From the NCBI RefSeq assembly GCF_016026235.1, contig NZ_CP065613.1: DNA of 64,000 nt; one strand, 5' to 3'. Below the pieces are notes generated by a model. It did not search any database. It worked only from the letters and a program-made list of their open reading frames with translations, and was not told the DNA's origin. A program made the translations under genes and the position numbers. Source of the DNA: Escherichia coli (GTDB taxonomy: Bacteria > Pseudomonadota > Gammaproteobacteria > Enterobacterales > Enterobacteriaceae). This document shows positions 1 to 45,422 of the stretch, in pieces; the first letter of the stretch is position 1; the number at the start of each line of letters is the position of its first letter.

Positions 1-1376
1 GCGTACAGCACTTCGCTAAAACCATGCGGGCCAGGGTTGAGCATGGCGCTACGTCCGGCGTCGGTCATCATTGCCAGCGCCGCGCCCATCAGCACCAGCG
101 TCGGGGTGACCAGAATCGCCAGTGCAGTCAGTTTCATCTCACGTACGTCGATTTTTTTACCCAGATATTCCGGTGTACGACCAATCATCAGCCCGGCAAT
201 AAACACCGCCAGCAGGACAAACAGCATCATGCCGTAAAGACCAGAACCGACACCGCCGAATACCACTTCACCAATTTGCATCAGCCACATCGGCACCATG
301 CCACCGAGAGCGGTAAACGAATCATGCATCGCAATCACCGCGCCACAGGACGCCGCCGTAGTCACGACCGCAAACAGGCTACTGACCAGCACGCCGAAAC
401 GGCTCTCTTTACCTTCCATATTGATGCTGCTGTCTGCGCCGAGCGCCAGCAGATGAGGATTACCCTGAACTTCTGCCCACATCACCACGCCTACGCAGAT
501 GACAAAAATCACTGACATCGCCCACAGCAACATGCGCCCCTGGCGGCGATCGCCCGTCACTTCACCAAAGGCAAAGCACAGCGCTGTTGGGATCAAGAAG
601 ATCGCCAGCATCTGCACGAAGTTGGTCAGTGCGGTTGGGTTTTCAAACGGATGCGACGAGTTGGCATTAAAGAAGCCACCGCCGTTAGTACCGAGCATCT
701 TGATCGCTTCCTGAGAAGCTACTGGCCCCATGGGTAACAGCTGTTGCGCTCCTTCAACGGTATTCACTGCCTGATAGGGCAGAAAGTTTTGCAGCGCACC
801 TTGTTGAATAAAAAACAGTGCGATCAACAACGCCACAGGGACTAGCACCCATAACGTGATGCGTAGCAGATCGACCCAGGCATTCCCGAGTGTGCTCATG
901 CTCTGGCGGGTAAATGCACGGATGAAGGCAAAAATCACCGCAATCCCGCTGGCGGCAGAAAGAAAGTTTTGCACCGTTAAGCCCGCCATCTGGCTGAAAT
1001 AGCTCAACGTGGTTTCACCGCTATAAGATTGCCAGTTGGTATTGGTGACAAAGCTGACGGCGGTATTCAGCGCCAGATCCCACGACAGCCCCGGCAACTG
1101 CTGTGGATTAAGCGGCAGATAGTGCTGACCGAGCAACATAAAAAACAGCACCGCCAGCCCCAGCATGTTCAGGCCGAGAATGGCACAAAGATATTGCTTC
1201 CAGTTCATCTCATGGTCAGAGACGCCAGGTAAACGAAAGAGTATACGTTCAACGCCCGCTGTACCTGGAAGAGGAATGTCATTAATCAGCCGCGCCAGCC
1301 CGCTGCCTAAAGGACGCGCCAGCACCATTAACACCAGTAAAAACGTGGCGATCAGTAAGAACCCTTGCGCAGCCAT
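1..1376 (-). CDS. kdpA: Potassium-transporting ATPase subunit A (KdpA), N-terminal ~458 codons; gene continues past the window start
   Basis: Minus-strand ATG at 1374-1376 reads MAAQGF...; open frame runs to position 1; start overlaps kdpF stop (ATGA). Absent from the ORF track because its stop is outside the window. Confidence 0.85.
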
Positions 1377-1465
1377 CAGAACGCCTCCGCATTGATCAGG
1401 GCATAAACCAGATAACCCAGTAATAAAAACACCAGCAATACGCCGGTTATCACGCCTGCACTCAC
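1376..1465 (-). CDS. kdpF: KdpF, 29-aa membrane subunit of the Kdp complex
   Basis: C-terminal 29 residues of track ORF 1376..1579 are [29 protein letters not shown] (GTG start at 1463-1465); sits immediately upstream of kdpA. Confidence 0.85.
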
Positions 1466-1777: not shown

Positions 1778-1984
1778 ATGGAACTCTACAGAGAATATCC
1801 TGCATGGCTTATCTTTTTACGCCGTACTTATGCGGTTGCAGCGGGCGTTCTGGCGCTGCCTTTCATGCTTTTCTGGAAAGACCGCGCCCGCTTTTACAGC
1901 TACCTGCACCGCGTCTGGTCGAAAACCAGCGACAAACCGGTGTGGATGGATCAGGCCGAAAAGGCAACCGGTGATTTTTACTGA
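1778..1984 (+). CDS. ybfA: Small conserved protein YbfA (DUF2517), 68 aa
   Basis: Track ORF 1778..1984, [49 protein letters not shown]...; hydrophobic segment; followed by a hairpin and T-tract. Confidence 0.8.
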
Positions 1985-2004
1985 TTGCTGAGTTTTGAAT
2001 ACAT

Positions 2005-2041
2005 TGAAAACCGCTAGTGGAAACGCTGGCGGTTTTTTTCT
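2005..2041 (+). terminator. Rho-independent terminator after ybfA
   Basis: GC stem (ccgctag...ctggcgg) followed by a run of 7 T at about 2034-2040. Confidence 0.5.
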
Positions 2042-2085
2042 TATCGCCGTCTACACTTACTCCTGTAAACCGTTCAGGAGCAGTA

Positions 2086-2595
2086 ATGAATCAGCAACGA
2101 TTTGATGACAGCACCCTAATCCGTATCTTCGCCCTTCATGAGTTACATCGACTGAAAGAACATGGCTTAACGCGCGGGGCGCTTCTCGATTATCACAGCC
2201 GCTATAAACTCGTCTTTCTGGCTCATTCCCAGCCGGAATACCGCAAACTTGGCCCGTTCGTGGCTGATATTCACCAGTGGCAAAATCTGGATGACTATTA
2301 CAACCAGTACCGCCAACGCGTAATTGTTTTGCTTTCTCATCCCGCCAACCCGCGCGATCACACCAACGTTTTGATGCACGTTCAGGGGTATTTTCGCCCG
2401 CATATTGATTCCACAGAACGCCAGCAGCTGGCGGCGCTTATCGACAGTTATCGCCGTGGCGAGCAACCGCTTCTTGCGCCGCTGATGCGTATCAAACACT
2501 ATATGGCGCTTTATCCTGACGCCTGGCTTTCAGGGCAGCGTTATTTCGAACTTTGGCCGCGTGTGATTAACTTGCGCCATTCAGGAGTTTTATGA
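2086..2595 (+). CDS. ybgA: DUF1722 protein YbgA, first gene of the ybgA-phr operon
   Basis: Internal Met of track ORF 2017..2595 (MNQQRFDDSTLIRIFALHELHRLKEHG...); stop overlaps the phr start (ATGA at 2592-2595). Confidence 0.8.
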   Translation: MNQQRFDDSTLIRIFALHELHRLKEHGLTRGALLDYHSRYKLVFLAHSQPEYRKLGPFVADIHQWQNLDDYYNQYRQRVIVLLSHPANPRDHTNVLMHVQGYFRPHIDSTERQQLAALIDSYRRGEQPLLAPLMRIKHYMALYPDAWLSGQRYFELWPRVINLRHSGVL

Positions 2596-4010
2596 CTACT
2601 CATCTGGTCTGGTTTCGCCAGGATTTACGTCTGCACGATAATCTCGCGCTGGCTGCCGCCTGCCGCAATTCGTCTGCACGCGTGCTGGCGTTGTATATCG
2701 CTACACCACGCCAGTGGGCGGCGCATAACATGTCGCCGCGTCAGGCTAAACTTATCAATGCTCAACTGAATGGGCTACAAATCGCGCTGGCGGAAAAAGG
2801 TATTCCTTTATTGTTCCGTGAAGTGGATGACTTTGTCGCCAGCGTCGAAATAGTTAAACAGGTGTGCGCGGAAAACAGCGTTACTCATCTTTTTTATAAC
2901 TATCAGTATGAGGTGAATGAGCGGGCGCGGGATGTGGAAGTTGAAAGAGCGCTGCGTAACGTGGTGTGTGAAGGATTTGATGACAGCGTGATCCTGCCGC
3001 CTGGCGCGGTGATGACCGGCAATCATGAGATGTACAAAGTCTTTACGCCTTTTCAAAATGCCTGGCTGAAACGGCTGCGGGAAGGGATGCCGGAGTGCGT
3101 CGCTGCACCAAAAGTTCGTAGTAGCGGATCGATAAAGCCCGCGCCATCCATTACGCTGAATTATCCTCGTCAGTCTTTCGATACTGCGCATTTCCCGGTG
3201 GAAGAAAAAGAGGCGATTGCGCAATTACGCCAGTTTTGCCAGAACGGTGCCGGAGAATATGAGCAACAACGAGATTTTCCTGCAGTGGAAGGCACCAGTC
3301 GTTTGTCCGCCAGCCTGGCAACGGGCGGGTTATCGCCTCGCCAGTGTTTGCATCGCTTGTTGGCGGAACAGCCGCAGGCGCTGGACGGTGGGGCCGGTAG
3401 TGTCTGGCTTAGTGAGCTGATCTGGCGCGAGTTCTACCGTCATCTGATGACGTATTACCCCTCGTTGTGTAAACATTGTCCGTTTATTGCCTGGACGGAT
3501 CGTGTGCAGTGGCAAAGCAATCCCGCCCATTTAAAGGCCTGGCAGGAAGGCATAACGGGATACCCGATTGTCGATGCTGCCATGCGTCAGCTTAATAGCA
3601 CTGGCTGGATGCATAACCGGCTACGGATGATTACAGCCAGTTTTCTGGTGAAAGATTTATTGATCGACTGGCGCGAAGGCGAGCGATATTTCATGTCGCA
3701 GCTGATTGATGGTGATTTGGCAGCCAATAACGGTGGCTGGCAGTGGGCGGCTTCTACGGGTACTGATGCAGCGCCGTATTTTCGTATTTTCAACCCGACA
3801 ACCCAGGGCGAGAAATTTGACCGCGAAGGCGAGTTTATCCGCCAGTGGCTACCGGAACTGCGCGATGTACCGGGGAAATCGGTGCATGAGCCGTGGAAGT
3901 GGGCTGAGAAAGCAGGTGTGAAGCTGGATTATCCGCAACCGATAGTCGAGCACAAAGAGGCGAGAGTACAAACGTTGGCAGCGTATGAGGCGGCGCGGAA
4001 GGGGAAATAA
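2592..4010 (+). CDS. phr: Deoxyribodipyrimidine photolyase (CPD photolyase)
   Basis: 472-aa ORF MTTHLVWFRQDLRLHDNLALAAA...; photolyase N-terminal alpha/beta domain and FAD-binding C-terminal motifs (WREFY, GWMHNRLRM). Confidence 0.95.
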   Translation: MTTHLVWFRQDLRLHDNLALAAACRNSSARVLALYIATPRQWAAHNMSPRQAKLINAQLNGLQIALAEKGIPLLFREVDDFVASVEIVKQVCAENSVTHLFYNYQYEVNERARDVEVERALRNVVCEGFDDSVILPPGAVMTGNHEMYKVFTPFQNAWLKRLREGMPECVAAPKVRSSGSIKPAPSITLNYPRQSFDTAHFPVEEKEAIAQLRQFCQNGAGEYEQQRDFPAVEGTSRLSASLATGGLSPRQCLHRLLAEQPQALDGGAGSVWLSELIWREFYRHLMTYYPSLCKHCPFIAWTDRVQWQSNPAHLKAWQEGITGYPIVDAAMRQLNSTGWMHNRLRMITASFLVKDLLIDWREGERYFMSQLIDGDLAANNGGWQWAASTGTDAAPYFRIFNPTTQGEKFDREGEFIRQWLPELRDVPGKSVHEPWKWAEKAGVKLDYPQPIVEHKEARVQTLAAYEAARKGK

Positions 4011-28141: not shown

Positions 28142-28214
28142 ATATCTGTAATAAGAAATAGCCCTCGCCGCTTCCCTCTACAGGAATGGCGAAGGGCTGT
28201 CGGTTTCGACATGG
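28142..28214 (+). ncRNA. sdhX: 5' portion of the sucD 3'-UTR sRNA region (SdhX/RybD), cut off from its terminator by IS1
   Basis: Begins right after the sucD stop and contains the hairpin gccctcgccgcttccctctacaggaatggcgaagggc; in uninterrupted loci this region runs on to the terminator now found at 28994-29018. Assignment rests on my memory of SdhX position, not on a covariance model. Confidence 0.4.
28206..28214. repeat. Left copy of the 9-bp IS1 target-site duplication (tcgacatgg)
   Basis: Identical 9-mer recurs at 28983-28991, immediately flanking both IS1 ends. Confidence 0.85.
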
Positions 28215-28269
28215 GGTAATGCTGCCAACTTACTGATTTAGTGTATGATGGTGATTTTAAGGTGCTTGC

Positions 28270-28545
28270 GTGGCTTCCATTTCCATCAGATGTCCTTCCT
28301 GCTCCGCTACTGAAGGCGTGGTGCGTAACGGCAAAAGCACTGCCGGACATCAGCGCTATCTCTGCTCTCATTGCCGTAAAACATGGCAACTACAGTTCAC
28401 TTACACCGCCTCTCAGCCCGGTACGCACCAGAAAATCATTGATATGGCCATGAATGGCGTCGGATGTCGCGCCAGTGCACGCATTATGGGCGTTGGCCTC
28501 AACACGGTTTTACGTCACTTAAAAAACTCAGGCCGCAGTCGGTAA
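28270..28545 (+). CDS. insA: IS1 InsA (transposition repressor; N-terminal part of the InsAB' transposase)
   Basis: 91-aa [43 protein letters not shown]... (zinc-finger and HTH). Confidence 0.93.
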
Positions 28546-28967
28546 CCTCGCGCATACAACCGGGCAGTGATGTGATTGTCTGCGCTGAAATGGACGAACA
28601 GTGGGGCTACGTCGGTGCTAAATCACGTCAGCGCTGGCTGTTTTACGCGTATGACAGGATACGGAGGACGGTTGTGGCGCACGTCTTCGGTGAACGCACT
28701 CTGGCCACACTGGAGCGTCTTCTGAGCCTGCTGTCGGCCTTTGAGGTCGTGGTATGGATGACGGATGGCTGGCCGCTGTATGAATCACGCCTGAAGGGAA
28801 AGCTGCACGTTATCAGCAAGCGTTACACTCAGCGCATTGAGCGACATAATCTGAATCTGAGACAACATCTGGCAAGGCTGGGACGGAAGTCACTGTCGTT
28901 CTCAAAATCGGTGGAGCTGCATGACAAGGTCATCGGGCATTATCTGAACATAAAACACTATCAGTAA
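28464..28967 (+). CDS. insB: IS1 InsB reading frame (expressed as the InsAB' transposase by -1 frameshift)
   Basis: 167-aa ORF in the -1 frame relative to insA, overlapping it; slippery ttaaaaaactc motif near 28520-28530. Confidence 0.9.
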
Positions 28968-28982
28968 GTTGGAGTCATTACC

Positions 28983-28991
28983 TCGACATGG
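28983..28991. repeat. Right copy of the 9-bp IS1 target-site duplication (tcgacatgg)
   Basis: Identical to 28206-28214. Confidence 0.85.
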
Positions 28992-44422: not shown

Positions 44423-44498
44423 GGGTCGTTAGCTCAGTTGGTAGAGCAGTTGACTTTTAATCAATTGGTCGCAGGTTCGAATCCTGCACGACCCACCA
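44423..44498 (+). tRNA. lysT: tRNA-Lys (anticodon UUU)
   Basis: gggtcgttagctcagttggtagagcagttgacttttaatcaattggtcgcaggttcgaatcctgcacgacccacca; cloverleaf with TTT anticodon and encoded CCA. Confidence 0.95.
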
Positions 44499-44526
44499 AT
44501 CGCTAAGGTGGAAGCGGTAGTAAAAC

Positions 44527-44598
44527 GTGAAGGATAACGTTGCATCAGCAACGGCCCGAAGGGCGAGACGAAGTCGAGTCATCCTGCACGACCCACCA
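44527..44598 (+). repeat. Spacer repeat copy 1 ending in a pseudo-tRNA-Lys 3' end
   Basis: gtgaaggataacgttgcatcagcaacggcccgaagggcgagacgaagtcgagtcATCCTGCACGACCCACCA; last 18 nt identical to the 3' end of tRNA-Lys. Confidence 0.8.
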
Positions 44599-44633
44599 CT
44601 AACATAGTTAGTTGTAGTATCCAGCGTAGTATT

Positions 44634-44709
44634 GGGTGATTAGCTCAGCTGGGAGAGCACCTCCCTTACAAGGAGGGGGTCGGCGGTTCGATCCCGTCAT
44701 CACCCACCA
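44634..44709 (+). tRNA. valT: tRNA-Val (anticodon UAC)
   Basis: gggtgattagctcagctgggagagcacctcccttacaaggagggggtcggcggttcgatcccgtcatcacccacca. Confidence 0.95.
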
Positions 44710-44711
44710 CC

Positions 44712-44787
44712 GGGTCGTTAGCTCAGTTGGTAGAGCAGTTGACTTTTAATCAATTGGTCGCAGGTTCGAATCCTGCACGACCCACCA
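44712..44787 (+). tRNA. lysW: tRNA-Lys (anticodon UUU)
   Basis: Identical to the lysT sequence; starts 2 nt after valT. Confidence 0.95.
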
Positions 44788-44815
44788 GTTTTAGCATCGA
44801 AGACAGATGTTAAGC

Positions 44816-44885
44816 GTGTAGGATAACGTTGCGTCAGCAACGGCCCGTAGGGCGAGCGAAGCGAGTCATCCTGCACGACCCACCA
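44816..44885 (+). repeat. Spacer repeat copy 2 ending in a pseudo-tRNA-Lys 3' end
   Basis: Near-identical to copy 1, with a few substitutions. Confidence 0.8.
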
Positions 44886-44936
44886 CTAATTACGGTGGGT
44901 TCGGTGGAAGTAGTTTGTAGTATCCAGCGCAGTATC

Positions 44937-45012
44937 GGGTGATTAGCTCAGCTGGGAGAGCACCTCCCTTACAAGGAGGGGGTCGGCGGTTCGATCCCGT
45001 CATCACCCACCA
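44937..45012 (+). tRNA. valZ: tRNA-Val (anticodon UAC)
   Basis: Identical to the valT sequence. Confidence 0.95.
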
Positions 45013-45015
45013 CTC

Positions 45016-45091
45016 GGGTCGTTAGCTCAGTTGGTAGAGCAGTTGACTTTTAATCAATTGGTCGCAGGTTCGAATCCTGCACGACCCACCA
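45016..45091 (+). tRNA. lysY: tRNA-Lys (anticodon UUU)
   Basis: Identical to the lysT sequence; 3 nt after valZ. Confidence 0.95.
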
Positions 45092-45119
45092 ATTTTAACA
45101 TCAAACTCAGATGTTAAGC

Positions 45120-45189
45120 GTGAAGGATAACGTTGCGCCAGCAACGGCCCGAAGGGCGAGCGAAGCGAGTCATCCTGCACGACCCACCA
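45120..45189 (+). repeat. Spacer repeat copy 3 ending in a pseudo-tRNA-Lys 3' end
   Basis: Near-identical to copies 1 and 2. Confidence 0.8.
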
Positions 45190-45237
45190 ATCTTAAAGAT
45201 TGGCCCCGAGTAAAAATCTTTCAGGTAACACCCGTAT

Positions 45238-45313
45238 GGGTCGTTAGCTCAGTTGGTAGAGCAGTTGACTTTTAATCAATTGGTCGCAGGTTCGAATCCT
45301 GCACGACCCACCA
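45238..45313 (+). tRNA. lysZ: tRNA-Lys (anticodon UUU)
   Basis: Identical to the lysT sequence. Confidence 0.95.
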
Positions 45314-45346
45314 TCCTGAATGATTAAAGCAGCATAATCCCGCAAG

Positions 45347-45422
45347 GGGTCGTTAGCTCAGTTGGTAGAGCAGTTGACTTTTAATCAATTGGTCGCAGGT
45401 TCGAATCCTGCACGACCCACCA
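45347..45422 (+). tRNA. lysQ: tRNA-Lys (anticodon UUU)
   Basis: Identical to the lysT sequence; last gene of the array. Confidence 0.95.

Follow-up and report, generated by a model that had tools for sequence, protein, structure and literature searches.

An empty allele of the RhsC insertion site between ybfA and ybgA in an Escherichia coli genome

In Escherichia coli K-12 the RhsC element occupies a chromosomal locus whose content is different in the DNA analyzed here, a stretch of 64,000 nucleotides from another E. coli genome (contig NZ_CP065613.1, hereafter the window), in which ybfA and ybgA are separated by a gap of exactly 101 bp (1985-2085). This raises the question of whether the gap descends from a site that an Rhs island never entered, from a site that has lost its island, or from an error of assembly, and of how other genomes came to hold islands at the same place. 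The features that define the site and its flanks in the window are the following.

1..1376, minus strand: 5' part of kdpA, the window starting inside the gene (tblastn with K-12 KdpA, 98% identity over 1376..3)
1376..1465, minus strand: kdpF (tblastn, 100% identity to K-12 KdpF over 1465..1379)
1778..1984 including the stop codon, plus strand: ybfA, 68 aa, DUF2517, left of the site (Pfam PF10725, E 2.9e-34)
2006..2039, plus strand: predicted intrinsic terminator of ybfA, with 5' arm 2006-2019, GAAA loop 2020-2023, 3' arm 2024-2037 and T7 run 2033-2039 (terminator scan, RNA fold, cross-genus conservation)
2040..2048, no strand: nine-nt spacer CTTATCGCC, the interval of island insertion in other genomes
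2049..2059, plus strand: conserved box GTCTACACTTA, the right-hand edge of every sampled island
2076..2080, plus strand: Shine-Dalgarno sequence AGGAG of ybgA (read from the sequence; 5 nt before the ATG at 2086)
2086..2595, plus strand, ATG start: ybgA, 169 aa, DUF1722, right of the site (Pfam PF08349, E 5.4e-35)
2592..4010, plus strand: phr (phrB), deoxyribodipyrimidine photolyase (open reading frame and annotation)

Reading rightward from ybfA, the gap holds the ybfA terminator, the spacer CTTATCGCC, the TCTACACTTA box and the ybgA ribosome-binding site. The only open reading frame that fits within it is a 5' extension of the ybgA frame, and an Rfam scan of 1300-2800 returned only a meaningless match to mir-498 (E 0.33), leaving no known RNA in the intergenic regions. 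YbfA of the window is 100% identical to K-12 YbfA. On the right-hand side the start of phr overlaps the stop of ybgA by 4 nt, placing the two genes in the same operon, and dtpD follows phr on the minus strand. The kdpA stretch forms the left-hand conserved flank, over which the window is colinear with K-12 727357-729394. A patch near the 5' end of kdpA (1213-1266) has about 11 substitutions in 54 bp relative to K-12 and is hypervariable, with different combinations of substitutions in every other strain compared.

The candidate terminator at 2006-2039 has the properties expected of a Rho-independent terminator, namely a GC-rich hairpin, a U run, a position downstream of a stop codon and a conserved structure. 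Its 14 pairs close on a GAAA loop with a folding energy of -21.8 kcal/mol (z = -2.8 relative to shuffled sequences). Citrobacter, Enterobacter and Trabulsiella have the hairpin and T run as well, in part with other stem sequences, and 2 of 13 hairpin pairs show compensatory changes across these genera. The window has T2015 and T2018 in the terminator arm where the occupied alleles that we read have C, and both still pair, as G.U. The ybfA 3' untranslated stretch just ahead of the hairpin (about 1990-2005) exists in two deeply different versions, TGAGTTTTGAATACATTG in the window, K-12, the O157-like strain and SCPM, and a CAAACATGACGTTTAAAG-like version in B2 strains, E69 and strain 405; these versions are not strictly linked to occupancy of the site.

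The original prediction had described ybfA and ybgA as lying about 100 bp apart with a terminator between them and no Rhs element or island genes, and had placed an RhsC element and several ybf genes at this point in K-12. The length of the gap and the hairpin at 2006-2037 with its T run bear out the first part, and tblastn with K-12 RhsC (1,397 aa) and with YbfD of the H-repeat found no match in the whole 64-kb window, which also contains no immunity gene. The K-12 arrangement that it described proved accurate as well, since rhsC, ybfB, ybfO (a pseudogene), ybfC, ybfQ, ybfL (a pseudogene) and ybfD lie between ybfA and ybgA in MG1655; adjacency of the two genes in K-12 would have told against the prediction, and a 9.57-kb island is found there instead.

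Alignment with K-12 and other E. coli genomes, as had been proposed, places the island boundaries at 2038 and 2048 of the window. Specifically, the blastn alignment with K-12 ends at window 2038 (K-12 729394) and resumes at window 2048 (K-12 738963), so that K-12 729395-738962 is missing from the window. The K-12 island (9,569 bp) has its left edge after GGCGGTTTTTT, begins with GTATCAGGAAGATG, and ends on the right with ...CACAAATATCATTTCTCAAC abutting GTCTACACTTA. We considered the GTATC at the K-12 left junction as a possible remnant of the ancestral spacer and rejected this, since the placement of IS200C in strain 405 assigns GTATC to the left end of the island. The locus is the rhs 'position 5' (kdpA-phr) of Jackson et al. 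(2009, BMC Genomics 10:584; PMC2935791), who found it present, a pseudogene, a relic or absent depending on the strain, and the same polymorphism is covered as locus b0699-b0706 in the E. coli W genome paper (PMC3032704).

Outside this locus the window follows the order of K-12 727357-792000 throughout, the only departures being an IS1 and slightly different spacing within a tRNA array. The IS1 is a complete 768-bp copy at 28215-28982, just downstream of sucD, with InsA at 28270-28545, InsB' at 28464-28967, 23-nt terminal inverted repeats and a 9-bp target duplication TCGACATGG at 28206-28214 and 28983-28991. Its insertion point corresponds to K-12 765114-765122, which lies inside the sdhX small-RNA gene (765050-765150), and SdhX is therefore probably disrupted in the window strain. 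The tRNA array at 44423-45422 (lysT-valT-lysW-valZ-lysY-lysZ-lysQ) has the same seven genes as K-12, and the spacer before the last tRNA-Lys measures 33 nt in the window versus 132 nt in K-12.

We next examined how the site is occupied across the species, using a 1,321-bp stretch around it as query against 5,426 complete E. coli genomes, of which 5,424 have the locus. The query is contiguous, as in the window, in 1,310 of these 5,424 genomes (24%), and it is interrupted at the same point in about 4,100 of them, with splits at query positions 659-660 and 655-669 that correspond to window 2038-2048. An intact K-12-type left junction, where the ybfA terminator runs into the rhsC leader, occurs in 3,695 genomes, and an intact K-12-type right junction, where ybfD meets ybgA, in 3,096. 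These counts establish what the original prediction had called an unoccupied insertion site: genomes of the species are polymorphic for the presence or absence of an island here, and window 1985-2085 shows the unoccupied (null) form. One complete genome, FDAARGOS_943, is 100% identical to the window over the 1,321 bp and is the only one to be so across the site; RefSeq annotates ybfA and ybgA as neighbors in it, along with kdpF. Elsewhere in FDAARGOS_943 kdpA is split by an IS5-family element and dtpD is truncated beside an IS1, both genes being intact in the window, which thus comes from a related strain with fewer IS elements. Over 20 kb the best match among complete E. coli genomes is the O18ac:H14 strain 873.10 (99.8%).

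Junctions were read in 10 occupied genomes. The fillers range from 1.7 to 15.7 kb. Among them are RhsC-type islands that differ in their toxin tips, relics in a state of decay, an island with a larger and different Rhs, and an island of immunity genes only. Representative occupants are given below, with intervals measured from the ybfA stop to the ybgA ATG.

YJ1, 9.0 kb: K-12-like composite
110 (O157-like), 7.9 kb: Rhs core with another tip and orphan immunity genes
GPEC403-625, 5.1 kb: an Rhs gene and one small open reading frame only
O8:H8 16F5M1D1: core joined to a ybfC-type tip
405, 7.3 kb: IS200C between the terminator and the Rhs leader
G3/10: relic reduced to an N-terminal piece of Rhs (DUF6531), one more fragment and ISEc1
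FCI1, 15.7 kb: larger, different Rhs, SymE toxins and three ISAs1 copies
DG343-1, 1.7 kb: no Rhs; an ERIC-like repeat and three small genes

The RhsC-type islands at the site belong to clade I and are of several compositions. All sampled Rhs-type islands share the left end GTATCAGGAAGATG and a right end of the form CACAAA..TCATTT.C.A.C abutting GTCTACACTTA. The DG343-1 island (1.66 kb) is of another kind. One of its genes has a strong CdiI_3 match, one a weak SMI1_KNR4 match and one has no assignment, so that it looks like a stand-alone immunity-gene cassette, and islands of this type are present in 170 of the 5,426 genomes. Its left junction reads T9-GGTTAGGATCGC with an ERIC-like repeat and its right junction reads ...TTTTTTCAATACTGCC followed by GTCTAC, both differing from the Rhs-type ends, while its right side keeps the T run, the spacer and the GCC before GTCTAC that are typical of the empty allele. 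For these reasons we rejected the idea that it is a deletion derivative of an Rhs island; its own junctions and the retained empty-type sequence instead indicate an independent insertion into the empty allele. There are therefore at least two independent insertions in the same interval of about 10 nt, the Rhs type and the DG343-1 immunity island, and the label of a hot spot for Rhs/island integration that the original prediction gave to this place is justified by the finding of different cargo with different end sequences at one interval. The FCI1 island departs from both types, in that its left junction lies directly after the ybfA stop, with replacement of the terminator of that gene. Its 1,552-aa Rhs follows a DcrB-related fragment, and the rest of the cargo comprises orphan tips, two SymE toxins, one HNH toxin and the three ISAs1 copies. 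The island recalls the clade-III rhs reported at position 5 in Shigella flexneri (Jackson et al., 2009; PMC2935791).

To which state the ancestor belonged was said at the outset to be beyond what the window could decide. That is fair for the window taken by itself, and outgroups settle the matter of adjacency at the level of the family. A scan with YbgA as query, taking one genome per species, returned 21 loci. The order kdpA-(kdpF)-ybfA-ybgA-phr with a gap of 100-170 bp is found in six Citrobacter species, in Enterobacter sp. JUb54 and in Trabulsiella odontotermitis, and the gap in these genera holds a hairpin, a run of T7-8, 8-11 variable nt and (G)TCTACACTTA, in the same order as in the window. 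More distantly, ybfA lies 0.5-0.8 kb upstream of ybgA in Erwinia, Dickeya, Pragia and Budvicia and about 2.2 kb upstream in Samsonia, with no RhsC or YbfD match at the loci of these five genera. Contiguous outgroup loci with a homologous junction layout thus point to adjacency of ybfA and ybgA as the ancestral state for Enterobacteriaceae.

Within Escherichia both states occur. The site is unoccupied in two species-level lineages that bear the label E. coli (E69 and SCPM-O-B-8794), and the SCPM spacer ATGTACGCC resembles that of Citrobacter, ATGCACGGAC. An Rhs-type right end abutting GTCTACACTTA is also found in E. albertii, E. whittamii, Escherichia sp. E1V33 and MOD1-EC7003; in these and other Escherichia drafts it is the right junction that could be read, as the contigs break in or just upstream of the island. 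A complete rhs at position 5 of E. albertii has been described, and the ancestral E. coli has been reconstructed as occupied there (Jackson et al., 2009; PMC2935791). Since the same right end recurs in E. albertii, E. whittamii and two further Escherichia lineages, the Rhs insertion appears to be old, and the shared ends of the islands fit a single old insertion followed by internal turnover.

The allele in the window can be traced further by markers that separate empty from occupied sequences. At the nucleotide level the nine-nt spacer is absent from the occupied alleles that were read and is carried by empty alleles only, so that the exact insertion point is known to within about 10 nt. Likewise, every empty allele has TCG(C/G)CG ahead of TCTACAC, and no occupied allele does. 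T2015, T2018 and the spacer form CTT(A/T)TCGCC recur together in FDAARGOS_943, PapRG-04-4, Combat11I9, PE164 and MB53, all of them empty, and are absent from K-12, YJ1, 110, GPEC403-625, DG343-1 and 405, all six of them occupied. The ends of the Rhs-type island, GTATCAGGAAGATG on the left and CACAAA..TCATTT.C.A.C on the right, do not occur in the window, which reads T7-CTTATCGCC-GTCTACACTTA and bears no deletion scar; the decay product in G3/10, by comparison, keeps both island ends and fragments between the same flanks. Because these markers are common only to empty alleles and no scar is present, we infer that the window allele is of never-occupied descent.

The explanation that best accommodates these results, and that we consider highly probable as a whole, is that the window carries the null allele of position 5 in an arrangement ancestral to the Enterobacteriaceae. 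A single Rhs toxin/immunity island would have been inserted in early Escherichia between the T run and the G of GTCTACACTTA. Its interior would since have been turned over by displacement of toxin tips, gain of orphan modules, H-repeat/ISAs1 copies, IS insertions and decay, with the ends staying fixed. Empty and occupied alleles would have existed side by side from that time onward, with homologous recombination in the flanks carrying them from one background to another, and the allele in the window descending from the never-occupied form and not from a deletion derivative.

Simple vertical retention of this allele is argued against by the flanks. Beyond about 100 bp from the site they are 98-99% identical to those of occupied genomes (K-12, 110), and genomes of the B2 type, the commonest of the empty ones (Nissle 1917 is an example), show 15, 8 and 15 mismatches to the window in three 100-bp bins around the site. 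Flanks that resemble occupied genomes and do not resemble B2-type empties suggest that recombination has uncoupled the occupancy state from its surroundings, and for the lineage of the window, vertical retention of the empty allele and its re-acquisition by recombination fit these data equally well. The same flanks lend some weight to secondary loss, according to which an ancestor of the window strain had RhsC and lost it by precise excision or by replacement with an imported empty allele. Flanks near-identical to those of occupied A/B1/E-type genomes (0-5 mismatches per 100 bp) are what such a history would leave; only about 226 of some 4,340 non-B2-like genomes appear empty, as judged from identity bands in which the B2-type empties are assumed to be the 1,084 best matches at 90-95% identity; G3/10 and O8:H8 16F5M1D1, whose 20-kb flanks are close to the window, hold a relic or an island; and the occupied ancestral E. 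coli inferred by Jackson et al. (2009; PMC2935791) points the same way. Precise excision is nevertheless unlikely, as there are no flanking repeats beyond chance and no integrase, and a deletion could not regenerate the spacer and the two terminator substitutions, which are absent from the occupied alleles read. Replacement by recombination is compatible with our main explanation, in that the imported allele would itself still be of never-occupied descent. We therefore regard secondary loss as a doubtful, if quite conceivable, account. Assembly error can be given practically no credence. It would require that the multi-copy Rhs core had been collapsed or skipped while the element was really present, and draft assemblies do break at this locus, the contigs of E. 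albertii, MOD1-EC7003 and E1V33 ending 124-2,150 bp upstream of ybgA. A collapse would however leave island ends, of which the window has none; its junction is colinear with the outgroups; and 1,310 complete genomes are contiguous at the site, one of them identical throughout the query.

The repeated use of the interval could also be ascribed to a dedicated recombinase or transposase for which 2033-2059 serves as an attB-like site. Such a site would account for the arrival of the Rhs type and the DG343-1 island, with their different ends, within the same roughly 10 nt; ISAs1/H-repeat transposase genes are present at the right end of many islands; and in strain 405 IS200C landed immediately after the T run. 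The original prediction had thought it worth searching the junction for short direct repeats or for what might be left of an Rhs core, and neither was found: tblastn gave no match to the core, and in five occupied genomes no direct or terminal inverted repeats beyond chance bound the islands and no target-site duplication was seen. The longest words common to both junctions are 6-7 nt, in the range of shuffled controls (mean 5.3-5.4, maximum 8-10). This absence of target-site duplications and terminal inverted repeats argues against a dedicated enzyme, as does the minimal island in GPEC403-625 (rhs and a small open reading frame), which contains neither transposase nor integrase, and the gap between terminator and promoter may simply be one of the few places that tolerate insertion, IS200 being known to prefer sites next to terminators. 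An attB-like site is accordingly an improbable explanation in our estimation.

The box that forms the right-hand edge of the islands may have a function of its own. About 27 nt separate TCTACACTTA from the ATG of ybgA downstream of it. The sequence does not vary among the sampled E. coli alleles, nor in Citrobacter and Enterobacter; Trabulsiella and the SCPM lineage each differ from it at a single base. Taking the sigma-S -10 consensus as KCTAYRCTTAA, TCTACACTTAC at 2050-2060 matches it at 10 of 11 positions, and TACACT at 2052-2057 is likely the -10 element of the sigma-S-type promoter ybgAp1. ybgAp1 is listed among 169 sigma-38 promoters and noted as one of two with a detectable -35 in K-12 (bioRxiv 10.1101/2020.02.05.936344), and ybgA has been used as an RpoS-regulated qPCR target (PMC3306417). 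A literature search on the ybgA-phr promoter found nothing specific. Since a generic sigma-70 promoter scan of 1380-2700 gave no site in the ybfA-ybgA gap, it is conservation and the literature listing that carry the assignment.

If the assignment is correct, an island inserted directly upstream of this -10 box would exchange everything upstream of -14 according to occupancy. K-12 has a -35-like hexamer, TTCACA, at a distance of 19 nt upstream from TACACT, and this hexamer is part of the RhsC island, at its right end; in empty alleles the sequence at that position is the ybfA terminator. Over the 200 bp on either side of the site B2 strains diverge from other E. coli by up to 15%, equal to the divergence between species. 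A comparison of B2 genomes with the window gives a similar picture, with up to 15% difference in the 100-bp bins beside the site, as much as is seen for other Escherichia species. We would offer it only as an unlikely conjecture that occupancy could heritably alter photolyase expression in stationary phase or under stress, and that the two states could be a long-lived polymorphism that crosses species and not a neutral gain and loss.

The locus, its variable occupancy and its age have been published, and what the window shows is an ordinary instance of a known polymorphism. Our additions are small ones: coordinates for the junctions, a frequency based on 5,424 genomes, the colinearity with outgroups that settles ancestry for the family, the allele markers that speak against deletion, the independent immunity-only island and the placement of the island against a conserved candidate promoter box. 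They refine the published scenario of gain and loss at position 5 on three points, namely that the empty allele has the same order as the outgroups, that the ends of the island stay fixed from one Escherichia species to another, and that at least two independent insertions fall in one 10-nt interval. A genome without RhsC and its linked immunity genes is also relevant to predicting which Rhs toxins a strain delivers or resists, and the state of the site is a convenient marker for strain typing.

When compared with known systems, the closest counterpart of the site is the K-12 RhsC element (b0700-b0706), which has the same chromosomal locus and flanking genes; it differs in that the window is without rhs core, tips and H-repeat. 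Jackson et al. (2009; PMC2935791) read absence at this position as loss, whereas our nucleotide comparison indicates that the empty allele is of pre-insertion descent. In other genomes the site is filled by orphan immunity genes and by rhs-CT/immunity modules, in which respect its occupants resemble the orphan toxin/immunity arrays of polymorphic toxin loci (Poole et al., 2011; PMC3150448). K-12 provides an example in ybfO-ybfC, and DG343-1 another in its SMI1_KNR4-like and CdiI_3 genes; the window has none of this. Island attachment sites of the tRNA/integrase type are similar in being a fixed point that is either empty or filled with variable cargo, but unlike them the ybfA-ybgA site has no tRNA, integrase or bounding direct repeats. 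Finally, C. W. Hill's laboratory reportedly described, in the 1990s, Rhs-null ('Rhs degree') sites in natural E. coli isolates of the ECOR collection, with Rhs elements said to be present or cleanly absent by lineage in a pattern that correlates with population structure. The window shares the concept of these Rhs-null sites, as a locus from which the element is cleanly absent.
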